This document shows positions 2,445-40,699 of a stretch of DNA of 64,000 nt, piece by piece. This DNA comes from a virus: positions 32,001-96,000 of IMG/VR virus record IMGVR_UViG_3300031419_000010. One strand, 5' to 3'. How positions within the stretch are numbered: the stretch's first letter is position 1; every line of letters begins with the position of its first letter. A model generated the notes under the pieces. It was not told the origin of the DNA, did not search any database, and saw only the letters and a list, made by a program, of their open reading frames with translations. Made by a program: the position numbers and the translations under genes.

Positions 2445-2529
2445 AACTTTTTATATCGCCTCGCAAAGAAATATAAAAAGTTGGCCTAATAACGATTCAC
2501 GTTCCTTCGCAAAACTAATTATTAGGCCA
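2445..2529. repeat. Two abutting perfect inverted repeats (12 bp and 11 bp arms)
   Basis: AACTTTTTATAT 2445-2456 / ATATAAAAAGTT 2471-2482; TGGCCTAATAA 2482-2492 / TTATTAGGCCA 2519-2529; both loops contain TCGCAAA. Confidence 0.85.
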
Positions 2530-2564
2530 TGAGCAAATTGCCCTAAACGCACAAATCAAATTTG

Positions 2565-3368
2565 TTACTCGTCGTCTTCCTCTTCTTCCTCTTCCTCTTC
2601 GCGGTTAAAAGGAAGGTTGACTGTCTCTTCGATTGCGTCACCGTCAAATTCTTCGGTGAAGGTTTCTGCTTCACTTTCGAAATCAAAATCAGGCTCGTCA
2701 TCATCGAACGACAAAGATTCATCAACGCGCTTTTTATTTTCCATGTAGAAAATCGCGTCACTTGCCATGTTGGTTAACGTGGCATCGTTTTTCATATCAA
2801 GTTCAGCTTCGATAAAGCGCTGTTCCCACGTACGGCGCGGAACTTCCATAATCTGATCCGCATGGTCTTCTACTTCTTCGCCGCCCTGAATAGGCAGGCC
2901 AAGAAACTTAACCAGCGCACGGACGGAACTAAGTTCCACGTCGCAGATCATTTCATACAGCGATTGCTTTTCGATTTCGTCGCGCTGCTCAAGCAGGAAG
3001 TTTTCCAGCTTCGTGCTGTCCTGAATTTCAACTTTAGTTACTGCGCGGTTGTCCGGTTTGACTACGCAACGCAGAGCGATGAGCGGAACTTCTGCAAAGG
3101 ATTTGCCGATGTTCATCAAAATACACATATCAACAAAGCGCTCAGATTCGTGAACGGCATCACCTTGCACAACACAGCGCATCACAGCACGATCAAAAAT
3201 CTCTTCGCCATTAGAGCAAGTGATTTTGATTGGCAGTGCATCGCCATACATTTTCGCAACGGCCTGAGAAAGCAAAAGCCCCGGCACATGCGCAGCAAGA
3301 AGTTTGCCGTCGCGCAGGAAAGAAAACGTGATACCACCAAAGCCAGTTTTACGTTGTACGGTTAACAT
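2565..3368 (-). CDS. Hypothetical acidic protein with HEH-like motif
   Basis: GGAG RBS; poly-Glu C-terminus. Confidence 0.75.
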   Translation of the reverse strand: MLTVQRKTGFGGITFSFLRDGKLLAAHVPGLLLSQAVAKMYGDALPIKITCSNGEEIFDRAVMRCVVQGDAVHESERFVDMCILMNIGKSFAEVPLIALRCVVKPDNRAVTKVEIQDSTKLENFLLEQRDEIEKQSLYEMICDVELSSVRALVKFLGLPIQGGEEVEDHADQIMEVPRRTWEQRFIEAELDMKNDATLTNMASDAIFYMENKKRVDESLSFDDDEPDFDFESEAETFTEEFDGDAIEETVNLPFNREEEEEEEEDDE

Positions 3369-3380
3369 GATTATCTCCAA

Positions 3381-4226
3381 TTATTTAGACTGATTGATTA
3401 GGAATTCAAGCAAAGCTGCATCGGCATTGTTTCGAGCTTTCAAAGTTATGCCCATGTTTTCTGCCGCATCGACAACCGTTGGAAAATCCAGATACTCCAA
3501 GATCTCGTTTACGGCGTTTTGAACAGGGGCATCAACTTCACCAATGTTCAGAGTTTCAGCAAGTTCTTTAAGCGTGTCTATCGGCAACGAAAGCAGCAAG
3601 AATTTTAATTGCTGATATGTGCCAGAGGCTTCACGTCTTTCTTCCGGTGAAAGTTTTTCCGCTTTTACGCGGCGGCGCTTGTTGTCTAACAACGTTGCAG
3701 GCGCACGTTCTACAGCTTCATGCTGAACTTCTTCTTCCACTTGCTTTTTACTTTCTGTAGGTTTAACCACTTCCTTTTTATTCTTCGGTGGCGTTTCTTT
3801 TGCCTTCACAGGTTTTGCTACAATCGGTGCAGGCTTTTCTGTTTCACCAAAAGACTCGTCTCCGAGTTCAATCAAATTTCCCTTATACCCTTTTTCAGAA
3901 AAAGTAATTCCTACGATACTTGTTGCGCTATGAGGCAACTCAATCAAAGTAAAATCTGGAGCGTCGTGTTTTACCAGCGCCCAATCGCCGTGTATTGCGC
4001 GAAAGTTAAAATCGGCAAGAACGTTCTCAACTAACTTTGGCAGTTTGCGACGTGAAGTGTTTTCAATACTGCGGTGAAGATCAACAACAGAGATACGAAT
4101 AAAGTTGTCGTTAAACAACTCACCCTTTTCGTAAAGTCTACGGCGAGTCACTTCGTTTTCTTCGAAGATGCTTACCAGTGCTGAACGTACCGCTTCAAAA
4201 TCACTCTGACTATTTTCAGCAGACAT
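3381..4226 (-). CDS. Hypothetical protein (paralog family A) with C-terminal HEH-like motifs
   Basis: 281 aa; LPIDTLKELAETLNI motif. Confidence 0.75.
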   Translation of the reverse strand: MSAENSQSDFEAVRSALVSIFEENEVTRRRLYEKGELFNDNFIRISVVDLHRSIENTSRRKLPKLVENVLADFNFRAIHGDWALVKHDAPDFTLIELPHSATSIVGITFSEKGYKGNLIELGDESFGETEKPAPIVAKPVKAKETPPKNKKEVVKPTESKKQVEEEVQHEAVERAPATLLDNKRRRVKAEKLSPEERREASGTYQQLKFLLLSLPIDTLKELAETLNIGEVDAPVQNAVNEILEYLDFPTVVDAAENMGITLKARNNADAALLEFLINQSK

Positions 4227-4228
4227 AA

Positions 4229-4639
4229 TTAGGATTCCATTATTTCAAGAAACGAAAGTACAGGACTTTCAGGAATGAAAACTAACGTCGGGCCAGTTGG
4301 CAGATCCTTTTTCAAGGTGACGTGAGTCTTTAAAAAATTGGTTCCATCTGCAACCATCCAGCCGCCATAGAAGTTATGGAACTTTGGATAGGCCAGCAGT
4401 TCGACGATAGTTCCGATCACCTCAAGATACGAATACTCTTGAATGGTGTGCGCACCGAAAGGATGATCATCAGGCAACTGCGATTGATAGCCATGAATTT
4501 GCTCAAGCGGAACACTGAAAGCAATAGTGCCACGATCCTGCATAAAATGATCGACGCGTCCAAAAATATCATCAAGCGCCAACGCACACACTGCTTTGCA
4601 CACATTCTGATTTTGTTTGTTGCCGTTAAAAATCTGCAT
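4229..4639 (-). CDS. Hypothetical protein (distant family A)
   Basis: 136 aa; tightly packed in operon. Confidence 0.7.
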   Translation of the reverse strand: MQIFNGNKQNQNVCKAVCALALDDIFGRVDHFMQDRGTIAFSVPLEQIHGYQSQLPDDHPFGAHTIQEYSYLEVIGTIVELLAYPKFHNFYGGWMVADGTNFLKTHVTLKKDLPTGPTLVFIPESPVLSFLEIMES

Positions 4640-31887: not shown

Positions 31888-32081
31888 TGCTTTTTCCTGC
31901 GACGAATTTTTACAGCAGCCATGATCGCAAACAAAATGCTGTATGCGACCACGACACTTATTTTTCCAGTAGTGGAATAGTCAAACATGAAAGTTGAAAT
32001 TCCGAACAGGACGAAACTTATTACCGATACGGTTTCAATAAAAGCAAAGAACTCCGGACATAGATAAAACTTTTCGTCCAT
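31884..32081 (-). CDS. Small two-TM membrane protein
   Basis: two hydrophobic segments plus basic tail. Confidence 0.65.
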   Translation of the reverse strand: MDEKFYLCPEFFAFIETVSVISFVLFGISTFMFDYSTTGKISVVVAYSILFAIMAAVKIRRRKKQ

Positions 32082-35158: not shown

Positions 35159-35190
35159 TAAACAAGAAGCGCCCAACCAATGTTGAGCGC
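35159..35190 (-). terminator. Putative intrinsic terminator
   Basis: GCGCTCAAC/GTTGGGCGC stem followed by TTCTTGTTT. Confidence 0.6.
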
Positions 35191-35679: not shown

Positions 35680-36924
35680 TTAGTGCGAAGGCTGATAGTG
35701 CTTTTTGAAACTTTTGGCTATGCGACGTTTAGCCAGATCGTAATGTTCGTGACCTATGCCAATCAAATGACGATTTAGTTTGGCGCACACAATGCCGATT
35801 CGACCTTTGCCTATGTTTGGAGAAAATACAGTCTGCCCTTCTGTTGTGTTCGACAGAATAAGCTCAGTTAATTCTTCGACTGAAAGTTTTCTATCCAAGA
35901 CAAAAGCAGAACCGCTATCAGATTTGATACGCGAGATTTCTGATAAGGGAAGATCGTATTTTTCCACCAGCACCAAATCGGCACTTCCTTTTTTGACGCG
36001 ACGAATCTTTTTAGCAGAATCGAAAAGCACCAGAGGATTCTTTTTCTTTTCTGCGTACCGGGCAATAATTCCTGCGACACGTTCCGGCATAAGTTTGGCG
36101 TAGTCAGGATTCAATTCACAAAGAATTGCGTTGCGGTTTAAATATTTTGCAACGCCTGCGGTTGTTCCGCTTCCACCAAACGGATCGATAACCGTATCAC
36201 CTTCACGCGATCCGGAAAGTATGCAGGGCAAAATCAAGTCAGGTGGATATGCAGCAAAGTGACCGCCTTTGAATGGCTGGCTTGCCAATGTCCAAACGCT
36301 GCGCTTGTTTGCTTTAGCATATTTTTCTTTGTCGCTCTTAACCGGAGTTTTAATTGACTCGTTATCAAAATAATACTTCGGCTTTTTGCTCAACAGAAAA
36401 ACATATTCGTGCGAACGTGTGCAGCGATCACGAACACTTTCAGGCATAGGCGATGTTTTCTGCCAGATAATATCTTGCCGCAAATGCCAGCCGTCATCGC
36501 GTAATGCCATTGCTAACATCCACGGAATGCCGATCATATCTTTTTCTTTCAGACCTTCCAGCTTTTGCCCGCGCTTAGATTGGCGCGTGTCCTTTGGCAA
36601 GCCTCGCTGCTTTGTTCCGGTACGCTCACCGCCGAAACTGTGTGCCGGATTATCCTGCTTGCATCCGGGCCGATAGTTGTAATAACTGTCAGCAATGTTA
36701 AGCCACAAAACGCCATCAGGTTTTAATGTGCGTTTCACTTCCCGGAAAACTTCTACCAGCGCATTGATATATTCAGCAGGCGTTTTCTCCAAACCGATCT
36801 GCTCGTTGTTTCCATAATCGCGCAGACCGTAATAAGGAGGACTCGTTACACACATTTGAACACTGGCATCCGGTATCTTTTTTAATGTTGTGCGCGAGTC
36901 TCCTATCAGTACGCGAATAGTCAT
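35680..36924 (-). CDS. Beta-class N4-C/N6-A DNA methyltransferase fused to a degenerate MTase module
   Basis: CVTSPPY (motif IV) precedes DPFGGSGTT (motif I); extra roughly 120 aa C-terminal MTase-like module. Confidence 0.93.
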   Translation of the reverse strand: MTIRVLIGDSRTTLKKIPDASVQMCVTSPPYYGLRDYGNNEQIGLEKTPAEYINALVEVFREVKRTLKPDGVLWLNIADSYYNYRPGCKQDNPAHSFGGERTGTKQRGLPKDTRQSKRGQKLEGLKEKDMIGIPWMLAMALRDDGWHLRQDIIWQKTSPMPESVRDRCTRSHEYVFLLSKKPKYYFDNESIKTPVKSDKEKYAKANKRSVWTLASQPFKGGHFAAYPPDLILPCILSGSREGDTVIDPFGGSGTTAGVAKYLNRNAILCELNPDYAKLMPERVAGIIARYAEKKKNPLVLFDSAKKIRRVKKGSADLVLVEKYDLPLSEISRIKSDSGSAFVLDRKLSVEELTELILSNTTEGQTVFSPNIGKGRIGIVCAKLNRHLIGIGHEHYDLAKRRIAKSFKKHYQPSH

Positions 36925-37067
36925 GATTGAAGTCTATCCTTGCGCACCAACTCTAAAAGTTTTTCGTCTGAGATTCCCCAGCCATGCCAATAGTGCTCAG
37001 TGGCAAGTGCAATCTGACCGCGATAAAGCAACGTGCTTATCGCTCTCGCTAATAAAGTTTTATTCAT
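36921..37067 (-). CDS. Small hypothetical protein (48 aa) between the two MTases
   Basis: AAGGA RBS; overlaps both neighbours. Confidence 0.55.
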   Translation of the reverse strand: MNKTLLARAISTLLYRGQIALATEHYWHGWGISDEKLLELVRKDRLQS

Positions 37068-38247
37068 TTGCTTTCCTTTCTTTCGCAAACCGTTTGTACG
37101 CTTCGACAATATAGCTTTTGCAGATAGCGTAATAAAGATCCTGTTCCTCGATCCCTATGTATTTCAAATTCATCTGCGCACAAAGATAACCGCTGTGACC
37201 GCGCAGCATGTAAGGATCAAGAACAACAGAATTTGCATTCGTGTTTTCTTCAATTATCGTTCGCATAGTCTGAGGCGAGAACCTGTGACCAAACGTTGAA
37301 ACGATGATTCCTTTTTCAGTGCGCACACGTTGAAACTCTGCAAACAAATCAGCCATAGAAGTTGGATCGTTCCAGCGCTTGTTAACGCTACTGAAAATAA
37401 CCAAGTCCACGCTGTTATCCGGAATCGTGCGTAACTTTTCCAGAGTGTTACCGTGCATGAGTTTGATTTGCTGTTTCATTCTGTTCGGTTCCTGAGTGAA
37501 GTCGGCTAAAACATCCTCGCAAATAATCGAAGTGTTTTTCCAATCTTCTTTGTATTCAGCAGTGTCAACGCCAATGCCCGGCGTCAACTCAATACCAGTA
37601 TCTTTATGAAAGTTGATATACTTTTTGCATTCAACTTCCTGATAGTGTCTTGTTTGGGAATACTTAAACGGCGAACTTTGCTGCGGGATAATAAACGATC
37701 CGTAACGGGCAACCTGTGACGCACGTTCAATGATTCTAAACTCAAAATCTTTACCGCGATATTTTCCCATGTGATCGGATGTTTTCAAATATCCAAACGG
37801 AGGATTACTGATCGCGTTATCAAACTTCATGTTCGGATCAAGGTACTGCAAAACATCGTGTGTCAGTGCATCATCGTTTACCCATATTGCTTCGGGCAAA
37901 AGGCGTTTACCTATATCACAATATTCTTTGTTGAGTTCCACGCAAACAATAATCGGCTTCACGTTGGGATGATAGTATTTCATCCGGTGCATGTAGCAGA
38001 AACTCAAAATGCCCGTGCCTGCACACAGGTCAACGAGCGATCCATATCCTTGAATGTCTAATTCAAAATCCCACGCGTACGAAAGAGGTGTATGAAAACT
38101 GCCAAGCAAACGCACGTCACTTGTTGCGCTTTCAAAATAGTTTTCATATACGAAAATCTTTTGATCAAACGTCAGCGGTTTATCGCTGTTGATCAGCTCC
38201 ATCGCTTTTTGGTGACGCGCACTGTCAGCCTTTGTTAGTTTCCCCAT
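37060..38247 (-). CDS. Gamma-type amino-methyltransferase fused to a degenerate beta-class MTase module
   Basis: VDLCAGTG (motif I) followed by ISNPPFG (motif IV); C-terminal HGNTLEKLRTIPDNSVDLV...VVLDPY...YIGIE. Confidence 0.88.
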   Translation of the reverse strand: MGKLTKADSARHQKAMELINSDKPLTFDQKIFVYENYFESATSDVRLLGSFHTPLSYAWDFELDIQGYGSLVDLCAGTGILSFCYMHRMKYYHPNVKPIIVCVELNKEYCDIGKRLLPEAIWVNDDALTHDVLQYLDPNMKFDNAISNPPFGYLKTSDHMGKYRGKDFEFRIIERASQVARYGSFIIPQQSSPFKYSQTRHYQEVECKKYINFHKDTGIELTPGIGVDTAEYKEDWKNTSIICEDVLADFTQEPNRMKQQIKLMHGNTLEKLRTIPDNSVDLVIFSSVNKRWNDPTSMADLFAEFQRVRTEKGIIVSTFGHRFSPQTMRTIIEENTNANSVVLDPYMLRGHSGYLCAQMNLKYIGIEEQDLYYAICKSYIVEAYKRFAKERKANE

Positions 38248-38554
38248 TTGACGCGTCCATAATAATCGTAAAGTCAGTGCCGGGAATAGCGAAAGTATAA
38301 CGCCACAGGTTTTCACCGATGCGCTCAAACTGTTTCAGTTTCCAGCTAAAGCGAATCTGTTTTAAAACCTTTGAGATTGGAAAGATTGCATAAGGTGCGC
38401 CTGCAATAAATCCGGGAATGTGCTGCACAACATGTTTTGCTTTAACGAAAAATTCTTTCTTTTCGTGATCGGCAGAAATAGATTTTATGTAGTGCATCCC
38501 GCCGCGACCGCCGCCTTTATAAAGCAGCGCCAGATACGGCCTGTCATTTGTCAT
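38225..38554 (-). CDS. Hypothetical protein
   Basis: 109 aa ORF. Confidence 0.6.
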   Translation of the reverse strand: MTNDRPYLALLYKGGGRGGMHYIKSISADHEKKEFFVKAKHVVQHIPGFIAGAPYAIFPISKVLKQIRFSWKLKQFERIGENLWRYTFAIPGTDFTIIMDASNGETNKG

Positions 38555-39205: not shown

Positions 39206-39850
39206 TTAGATAACCCATTGTTCGTACCAAGAGGGCGTGTTTTGTAGCATCAACGCCATTCCGATACAGAAGCCATGCCCGAATTTTTTATCAGGATTGT
39301 TTAACGCTTGAAGAAAAGGATGACGCTCACCCGCTTTGTATTTGTAGGCTTTGAATGCGTCGTAAGTATCGTAATCACGAATCACAATGTTCGCGCCGCT
39401 GTTGAATTGTTTTTTCAGCTTGCGGAACTTTGGAGTCTGCAACATCAGCTTTGAATATTCCGGAACGTAGATCTGCTTTCGTGCTGCAACATAACTCAAG
39501 CGAAGATTTCCCCACTTAGAAAAATCTGCTTTCCTGCCTTTACCCATCGGATAGCGAAAGCCACGTTTGGTTCGTGCTCCGCTCAGGTGCCACATAAACC
39601 ATTCGCTATTTATTTCTCCGCACAGCAAATCAGAATCAAACTGCATGTGCTCACGATAAACTTTGCTGTACTGCCAAAGGTTTTCGAAGTTGAGAAACAT
39701 AACGCCGTCCGGAGTTCGACACGGCCCCAAATGAAACGGGCTAAGCTGGCTCCATTCGTCGTCGGTTGAAACAGGCGTAATGTCGAGATCAACATTTTTA
39801 GGTGCCTTGTCTTTTAAGCTCAGCACCGTAACTGTTCCCATCTTTTTCAT
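39206..39850 (-). CDS. NADAR-like (DUF6939-type) protein, putative ADP-ribosyl hydrolase
   Basis: DIT..WSQLSPF..FENLWQYSKV..LSYVAARKQIYVPEY..FGH pattern. Confidence 0.6.
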   Translation of the reverse strand: MKKMGTVTVLSLKDKAPKNVDLDITPVSTDDEWSQLSPFHLGPCRTPDGVMFLNFENLWQYSKVYREHMQFDSDLLCGEINSEWFMWHLSGARTKRGFRYPMGKGRKADFSKWGNLRLSYVAARKQIYVPEYSKLMLQTPKFRKLKKQFNSGANIVIRDYDTYDAFKAYKYKAGERHPFLQALNNPDKKFGHGFCIGMALMLQNTPSWYEQWVI

Positions 39851-40642: not shown

Positions 40643-40699
40643 TTGAAATTTACTCCTGAAAATGAAAAAGGGAATGAGCATAAGCCCACTCCCTATTAT

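Follow-up and report, generated by a model that had tools for sequence, protein, structure and literature searches.

Why should two DNA methyltransferases (MTases) that share no common ancestry in their catalytic domains, encoded side by side in a phage genome, each end in a piece of what looks like a further, inactive MTase? The question is raised by positions 35,680 to 38,247 of a 64,000-nucleotide stretch of viral DNA, here called the window (positions 32,001 to 96,000 of IMG/VR virus record IMGVR_UViG_3300031419_000010). Its source is a jumbo phage akin to the Dickeya phages JA11, JA13, JA29 and JA33 (genus Salmondvirus), to which it shows ~79% nucleotide identity at the methylase locus. 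A 256,283-nt contig encodes proteins identical to those described here. We find that each of the two C-terminal modules consists of the N-terminal and C-terminal parts of a small DpnA/YhdJ-like beta-class MTase from which the middle has been deleted, and that what is left is a compact five-stranded Rossmann-like domain. A first-pass annotation of this DNA had proposed that such tails join the two enzymes. Below we set out what the modules are, what they have lost and how they are conserved, and then weigh that proposal against its alternatives. The genes and domains in question are the following.

37060..38247, minus strand: P0002, 395 aa (open reading frame (ORF) and translation), a gamma-type orphan DNA MTase (residues 1-255) followed by relic module 2 (residues 256-395)
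37483..38247, minus strand: predicted catalytic domain of P0002, with motif I DLCAGTG, then motif IV NPPF, then a C-terminal target-recognition domain (TRD)
37060..37482, minus strand: relic module 2 (~140 aa), beta3-alphaC-beta4-alphaD-beta5 joined straight to alphaZ-beta1-alphaA-beta2-alphaB
36921..37067, minus strand: P0003, a small basic protein of 48 aa, coupled to both MTase genes
35680..36924, minus strand: P0001, 414 aa, a beta-class orphan DNA MTase (residues 1-290) followed by relic module 1 (residues 294-414)
36055..36924, minus strand: predicted catalytic domain of P0001, with SPPY, DPFGGSG and the canonical beta-class dimer motif region A.R..GW...W...HEYVFLL.K...SVW
35683..36045, minus strand: relic module 1 (121 aa, isoelectric point (pI) about 10), a truncated core as in module 2, without DPPY

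Both methylases end in a truncated beta-class core

Module 2 alone clears the gathering score of PF01555 (33.4 versus 26.7 bits), and module 1 is a PF01555 match of its own, separate from that of the catalytic domain before it (E 1.1e-6); beyond these methylases, the 110,870-nt record contains no further PF01555 match. The two modules recognize each other in BLASTP at E 2e-12 with 25% identity. In a 60-sequence alignment they retain beta3 (the 'hhhGD' strand), alphaC, beta4, alphaD and beta5, followed by alphaZ, beta1 (the former motif I), alphaA, beta2 and alphaB, which is the permuted Rossmann-type MTase core, in which the region of motif IV precedes that of motif I. The joint between beta5 and alphaZ measures 6-8 residues in the modules versus ~100 residues in full MTases, and the segment missing from both comprises the post-DPPY loop, alphaE, the beta6-beta7 hairpin, the TRD and HPTQKP. 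A profile of six modules was searched against 1.84 billion representative proteins. Ordinary 250-aa beta-class MTases match this profile in two pieces, positions 2-64 on their N-terminus and 73-127 on their C-terminus, and single-stretch, full-length matches at E <1e-30 came from Salmondvirus-like clusters only.

The predicted structures agree with the alignment. The AlphaFold2 model of module 2, computed from the 60-sequence alignment, reaches a predicted local distance difference test score (pLDDT) of 93.6 and a predicted template modelling score of 0.89, with its elements in the aligned order. The first-pass annotation had suggested a Foldseek comparison of the C-terminal modules with MTase structures; with the module 2 model as query against the PDB, the best 38 matches are all beta-class amino-MTases. 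When module 2 was compared by VIA-align with 48,161 representative chains, eleven beta-class MTases came out on top (Z 9.9-14.3, root-mean-square deviation (rmsd) 2.3-3.0 Å, 119-137 of 140 residues), ahead of the next fold at Z 6.9. BFVD holds independent models of the orthologues in JA29 and JA11, and these can be laid on the module 2 model along 133 contiguous columns (module 2, TM 0.88; module 1 of JA11, TM 0.78 and rmsd 2.1 Å). Alignments, PF01555 matches and fold are thus in accord with the annotation's description of tails that keep the beta-class scaffold and have no (D/S)PPY, a degraded motif I and no TRD.

An alternative layout of module 1 was considered and rejected. A tblastn alignment had presented it as a collinear C-terminal half of a DpnA-like MTase; profile matches, multiple alignment and fold instead assign its N-terminal part to beta3-beta5.

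The modules lack residues for catalysis and cofactor binding

Could either module still act as an enzyme? At the position of motif IV, (D/S/N)PP(Y/F/W) in active relatives, module 2 reads FSSVN (FSSVNKRW in place of TDPPY) and module 1 reads LVEKY. Motif I has become LDPYMLRGHSG in module 2, in place of LDPFMGSGTTG, and FSPNIGKGRIG in module 1, where IGIG also stands in place of IGIE; the beta6-beta7 hairpin, TRD and HPTQKP are absent from both. Mutagenesis of M1.HpyAVI identifies D29 (DPPY) and E216 (end of beta2) as indispensable for the binding of S-adenosylmethionine (SAM) and G197 (first Gly of FxGxG) as crucial; D8, H168, S198 and T200 also take part, with F195 stacking on the adenine (PMC5173035). 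At the aligned positions, in M1.HpyAVI numbering, the modules contain:

D29 (DPPY): Ser in module 2; lost in module 1
G197: Leu in module 2; Gly in module 1 (GxG kept)
S198: Arg in module 2; Lys in module 1
F195: Tyr in module 2; Asn in module 1
E216: kept in module 2; Gly in module 1
D8: Asn in module 2 of the window, Asp or Glu in relatives; lost in module 1
H168: deleted in both modules

In these alignments, neither module preserves the SAM-binding set formed by FxGxG, the acidic residue at the end of beta2 and the GD of beta3. Judged by their residues, methylation by the modules is excluded and SAM binding is very unlikely. A role as SAM sensors was considered and dropped for the loss of the key SAM-binding residues.

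Selection and distribution

Inactive domains may be debris. P0002 has four orthologues (71-83% identity) and P0001 has seven (69-80% identity), and in every one of them the module is fused in frame and free of indels, frameshifts and stops, with 61-82% amino-acid identity; the first-pass annotation had named tails absent or frameshifted in relatives among the findings that would speak against it. Relative to JA29 and JA11, approximate Nei-Gojobori dN/dS ratios lie at 0.09-0.13 in the modules and 0.05-0.07 in the catalytic domains, and the proportion of nonsynonymous differences (pN, 0.16-0.25) lies far below that of synonymous ones (pS, about 0.7). Module 1 is conserved to the same degree as the catalytic domain that adjoins it. 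These comparisons indicate that both modules are kept by purifying selection (dN/dS about 0.1) and are not decaying.

The modules are confined, as far as these sequence collections reach, to a narrow Salmondvirus-like clade. Within it, both MTase genes are present in 5/5 complete genomes. Outside it, 80 IMG/VR proteins related to the P0001 catalytic domain stop 0-21 residues past that domain, and neither a module nor a P0002 homologue lies within 4 kb of any of the 80. There is one cluster per module type among the 1.84 billion representatives; JGI metagenome contigs scanned with module 1 yielded no relative, and the ESM Atlas returned ordinary PF01555 clusters only. Two seeming additions were discarded, P0016 as a stand-alone module, being a fragment of a P0001 orthologue, and P0017 as a relative, being a low-complexity artefact.

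The catalytic domains

The enzymes that carry the modules appear complete. P0001 matches PF01555 with residues 22-278 at E 3e-58, covering profile positions 1-218 of 221, and its residues 1-290 combine SPPY as motif IV, DPFGGSG as motif I, an acidic residue after beta2 and a full-length PF01555 match; by these features they are a complete beta-class DNA amino-MTase, with TTHA0409, N4CMT and CcrM as solved relatives. Hundreds of stand-alone 'dam' genes on IMG/VR contigs share 54-65% identity with this domain, as do cyanophage 'dam' genes in phage records. Because it retains the dimer motif region, P0001 may homodimerize like its relatives.

P0002 has DLCAGTG at residues 73-79 and NPPF at 148-151, which is the gamma order. 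Its residues 1-260 match phrog_3820 'DNA methyltransferase' at E 6.5e-91, and it weakly matches the MTS, Eco57I and PrmC families as well; residues 1-255 are thereby predicted to be a gamma-type DNA amino-MTase. This domain occurs alone (~240-290 aa) in T4-like phages, for example Citrobacter phage Miller (48-50% identity). AlphaFold2 modelling of full-length P0002 from only four sequences gave a pLDDT of 42. By their motifs, then, the two genes encode intact orphan DNA amino-methyltransferases with catalytic domains unrelated to each other.

In the TRD/loop region of P0001 (window ~36280-36700; residues ~85-215), two reciprocal indels of about 19-35 residues set the window phage apart from the JA phages; they were read at columns 85-119 and 201-225 of the P0001 orthologue alignment. 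Unlike the relic tail, the TRD region varies by large indels among lineages, and its sequence suggests that the target specificity of P0001 differs or shifts between the window phage and the JA phages.

How did the modules arise?

Both modules resemble DpnA/YhdJ-like small MTases rather than the catalytic domain of P0001. In a maximum-likelihood tree of 122 columns the two modules, both on long branches, are sisters with a Shimodaira-Hasegawa approximate likelihood-ratio support of 88. The idea that module 1 is a tandem duplicate of its own catalytic domain was rejected: that domain matches the module profile at an independent E of only 4-74 and falls outside the DpnA-like group.

Arrangements that fit a plausible route occur elsewhere. 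P0018, P0021 and P0040, of phage or bacterial origin, are tandem fusions with two full-length PF01555 domains each. Eight stand-alone mini-ORFs of 106-152 aa have a similar internal deletion and are scattered singly among full MTases in the tree, from which we take it that such deletions recur and leave an ORF-compatible product. In six metagenomic mini-ORFs (P0081, P0065, P0087, P0124, P0046 and P0026; 106-151 aa) the deletion lies at about the module boundaries; P0065, P0087 and P0026 keep DPPY and GSG, and P0081 has lost both.

A neighbouring DpnA-like MTase gene would thus have fused to one of the enzymes and then undergone internal deletion, and the resulting relic would have been copied onto the second enzyme. 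We infer that the relic arose once and was duplicated later.

In Rhizobium phage RHph_TM3_3_14B, a complete 265-aa beta-class MTase gene (1704-2501) overlaps a phrog_3820-type gene (2501-3340). The phrog_3820-type MTase is 42% identical to the P0002 catalytic domain, and there is no fusion or truncation there. This overlapping pair indicates that the pairing of beta-class and phrog_3820-type MTases recurs outside the Salmondvirus clade.

What might the modules do?

Is there a task that would explain the retention of a dead domain on two different enzymes? The candidate that we hold most plausible, tentatively and on circumstantial support, is that the relics are non-catalytic accessory domains, chiefly for homotypic protein-protein association. 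One paralogous type of module sits on two unrelated catalytic domains, and the genes are adjacent, overlap through the 48-aa ORF and are co-inherited; the modules also group as sisters in the tree. That beta-class MTases work as dimers and inactive partners can act as scaffolds (PMC7544214) is sound as background but does not extend to these modules. Through association of the relics, the two co-translated methylases would assemble together or oligomerize, and both methylation patterns would be laid on the phage DNA at once, allowing evasion of host restriction. The most economical idea for the role of the modules is a putative module-module pairing. In its more specific form, the relics would bind each other, possibly with the 48-aa protein, and weld the beta- and gamma-class methylases into a hetero-oligomer of two specificities through a new interface made by the deletion; taken as a whole, we consider this version improbable.

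Which surfaces could the modules use? The beta-class dimer interface is marked by the motif N..T..A.R.FS..H..W..Y.F.L..R..NP..NVW and, in M1.HpyAVI, by R86, D93 and E96 (PMC5173035). Several observations weigh against association as the role of the relics, and the first concerns this interface: the canonical dimer motif, located between beta5 and the TRD, falls in the segment deleted from both modules, so that homology offers no interface for them. No module-specific common surface was seen, since the residues that modules 1 and 2 have in common are those of all beta-class cores, so that no novel site common to both singles out any of the readings. The modules are only 25% identical, and module 1, very basic with a pI of about 10, fits DNA binding at least as well. 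Their grouping as sisters may be long-branch attraction because both sit on long branches, the dN/dS ratios are approximate because dS is saturated (pS about 0.7), and the high-confidence fold of module 2 was built on an alignment of mostly full-length MTases, which biases the model towards the beta-class fold.

With the canonical motif in the deleted segment, any contact between relics must be non-canonical, and it would have to use surfaces bared by the deletion, for example the free edge of beta5. Homology thus does not support one part of the first-pass annotation, which had the modules dimerize in the manner of beta-class MTases or replace a partner subunit as METTL14 does: the appeal to homology fails with the loss of the dimer motif. 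Other parts of its interpretation, that the tails are dead, conserved and scaffold-keeping and that the genes are coupled, stand without the analogy to canonical dimers and METTL14.

A serious rival, though rather unlikely in our estimate, is that the relics are non-specific DNA tethers, each of which raises the processivity of its own enzyme like the C-terminal domain of CcrM, with no contact between the enzymes. CcrM is a beta-class MTase that has gained a C-terminal domain for non-specific DNA binding (PMC6787082). Charge is the main argument for such a function. In 7/7 orthologues, module 1 has a pI of 9.6-10.2 and a net charge of +8 to +15 over ~121 aa; module 2 has a pI of 8.5-9.4 versus 5.5 for its own catalytic domain, and given the acidity of that domain, the tail supplies P0002 with a basic surface. 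However, full-length beta-class MTases are generally basic (median pI 8.8), so the charge of the modules may be inherited. DNA contacts in solved complexes are made by the post-DPPY loop, the TRD and added domains (PMC7544214), the first two of which the modules do not possess, and the fold of the modules is unrelated to the CcrM C-terminal domain, as their alignments to CcrM span residues 3-260 only.

PRMT7 forms a pseudo-dimer within a single chain. Each relic might likewise pack in cis on its own catalytic domain, as a stabilizer or an allosteric lid, and its double occurrence would then stem from the descent of fusions with a neighbouring MTase gene. The linkers are indeed very short, ~8-10 residues between the last helix of the catalytic domain and beta3 of the module; the tandem complete beta-class fusions P0018, P0021 and P0040 provide an evolutionary route, and the beta-class MTase gene of RHph_TM3_3_14B overlaps a phrog_3820-type gene. 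Nevertheless, one type of relic would need two docking modes because the beta and gamma catalytic domains are unrelated, hundreds of close relatives of both catalytic domains do without a tail, and the canonical interface for a pseudo-dimer with a beta-class domain is deleted. We judge packing in cis to be unlikely.

The first-pass annotation had also suggested that module 2 might be translated on its own, from the following element.

37477..37493, minus strand: internal ATG (Met257; ATG 37479-37477) with AGGA 10 nt upstream (37493-37490), candidate start of module 2

The motif itself is present and conserved, as AGGA in the window and AAGGAG in JA29 and JA11, 9-10 nt before the conserved Met257, and a 139-aa product from ATG 37479 could serve as a small trans-acting regulator or partner. 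But the distance to the ATG is near the upper end of what is functional, and no stand-alone module 2 orthologue exists among the 1.84 billion representatives. The AGGA is moreover dictated by the codons of a conserved K/Q-E dipeptide, which weakens it as evidence for an internal start, and we regard a separately made module 2 as highly improbable.

Equally hard to credit is the view of the tails as functionless remnants of fused MTase genes heading for loss: stand-alone mini-ORFs with the same kind of deletion do nest singly among full MTases, as sporadic deletion products would, but the gap between pN and pS (0.16-0.25 versus about 0.7), the lack of any frameshift, stop or indel in orthologues and the conservation of module 1 on a par with its adjoining catalytic domain all contradict it.

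Comparison with known systems

The closest structural counterparts of the modules are small MTases of the DpnA, M1.HpyAVI and YhdJ type (PF01555; PDB 5HEK, 1G60, 6PBD and 2ZIE), with which they share the fold, the order of elements and detectable sequence similarity. Residues 173-227 of M1.HpyAVI align to residues 324-378 of module 2 at E 3.5e-6, and proteins of this type give VIA-align scores of Z 13-14 with module 2 (rmsd 2.3-2.8 Å over 119-132 residues). Unlike these enzymes, the modules have neither the ~100 central residues nor motif IV, their SAM-binding residues are replaced, and they are fused behind an intact MTase.

METTL14, with METTL3, and MTA9, with MTA1, are likewise derived from the beta class and stand with an eroded motif IV beside an active MTase (PMC7544214). 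An eroded motif IV next to an active partner is what the modules present as well. METTL14 and MTA9, however, keep the whole MTase fold and the dimer arrangement of the family and are separate polypeptides, whereas both modules have lost the dimer-interface region and are fused in cis, and one of the two host enzymes here is not of the beta class. The structural similarity of module 2 to METTL3, METTL14 and MTA1 amounts to only Z 5.7-6.1.

DNMT3L is a truncated, inactive MTase-like regulator of DNMT3A and DNMT3B that has lost motifs, TRD and cofactor binding and has a known interface with DNMT3A. The modules are similar to it as an MTase fold stripped of these same features and retained, and a non-catalytic partner role would extend the likeness; DNMT3L differs in its C5-MTase lineage, its eukaryotic origin, its existence as a separate protein and its known interface. 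The tandem multi-MTase fusions P0018, P0021 and P0040, with two MTase-derived domains per chain, represent a likely evolutionary precursor, but both of their PF01555 domains are full length, whereas the second domain here is cut to a core of 120-140 aa without catalytic residues.

The same architecture, gene order and small ORF recur in JA11, JA13, JA29 and JA33 (JA29 gp235-gp237; 69-86% protein identity), where the annotation of the orthologues goes no further than 'DNA methyltransferase' or 'putative methyltransferase'. The paper on the Dickeya jumbo phages mentions methylases only in its gene table and does not describe the relic domains (PMC6143709). Searching the literature for phage MTase domains that are inactive or degenerate gave no result, and a comparative review of jumbo phages is silent on them too.

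In eukaryotes, MTase-like partners without catalytic activity, among them METTL14, MTA9 and DNMT3L, have important regulatory roles; the searchable literature yielded no comparable relics joined in cis to orphan methylases of phages. If the relics assemble or tether their enzymes, they would illustrate how several anti-restriction methylations are coordinated by a phage, and they would mark the beta-class core stripped of its hairpin and TRD as a stable, reusable domain. If the modules bind each other, they would be a case, in phages, of a pseudoenzyme domain put to new use in assembly. Confined as it is to a single narrow jumbo-phage clade, the case has a modest general reach. For annotation, a terminal PF01555 match in these proteins should not be read as a second active methylase.

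Gene coupling and flanking features

The three genes are arranged, and carry the motifs, as the first-pass annotation stated. The stop of P0002 and the start of P0003 overlap by 8 nt (ATGAATAA), a Shine-Dalgarno sequence, GAAAGGAAAG, precedes P0003, and the stop of P0003 overlaps the start of P0001 by 4 nt (ATGA), which couples the 48-aa ORF translationally to both MTase genes. The longest ORF of P0002 opens at TTG 38328; ATG 38247 is the start in all orthologues.

P0003 is confined to the Salmondvirus-like clade, with conserved orthologues in JA29, JA11 and JA13 (40-44% identity) that share the pattern W-H...ISDE..L..V...KDR. Its dN/dS is about 0.33 (Nei-Gojobori, versus JA29 and JA11), and it has no match in Pfam, PHROGs or NCBIfam. 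The P0003 orthologue of JA29, gp236 (66 aa; 4143-4343 of the JA29 locus), is named 'putative methyltransferase' in RefSeq. With no MTase similarity of the P0003 family in these three collections, the name looks like a carry-over from the neighbouring genes.

Two hairpins suggest that the MTase genes lie in one minus-strand transcription unit bounded by terminator-like elements, both from a consensus scan only:

35169..35190, minus strand: terminator-like hairpin, probable end of the minus-strand unit with the MTase genes
40669-40694, minus strand: matching terminator-like hairpin

Upstream of P0002, a 109-aa gene without a Pfam match (38225-38554, minus strand) overlaps the P0002 start by 23 nt, an overlap by which the coupled block may comprise four genes. 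The neighbouring gene at 39206-39850, also on the minus strand, gave no NADAR family in the Pfam scan and matches DUF6939 (PF22075) at E 6e-8, above the gathering score.

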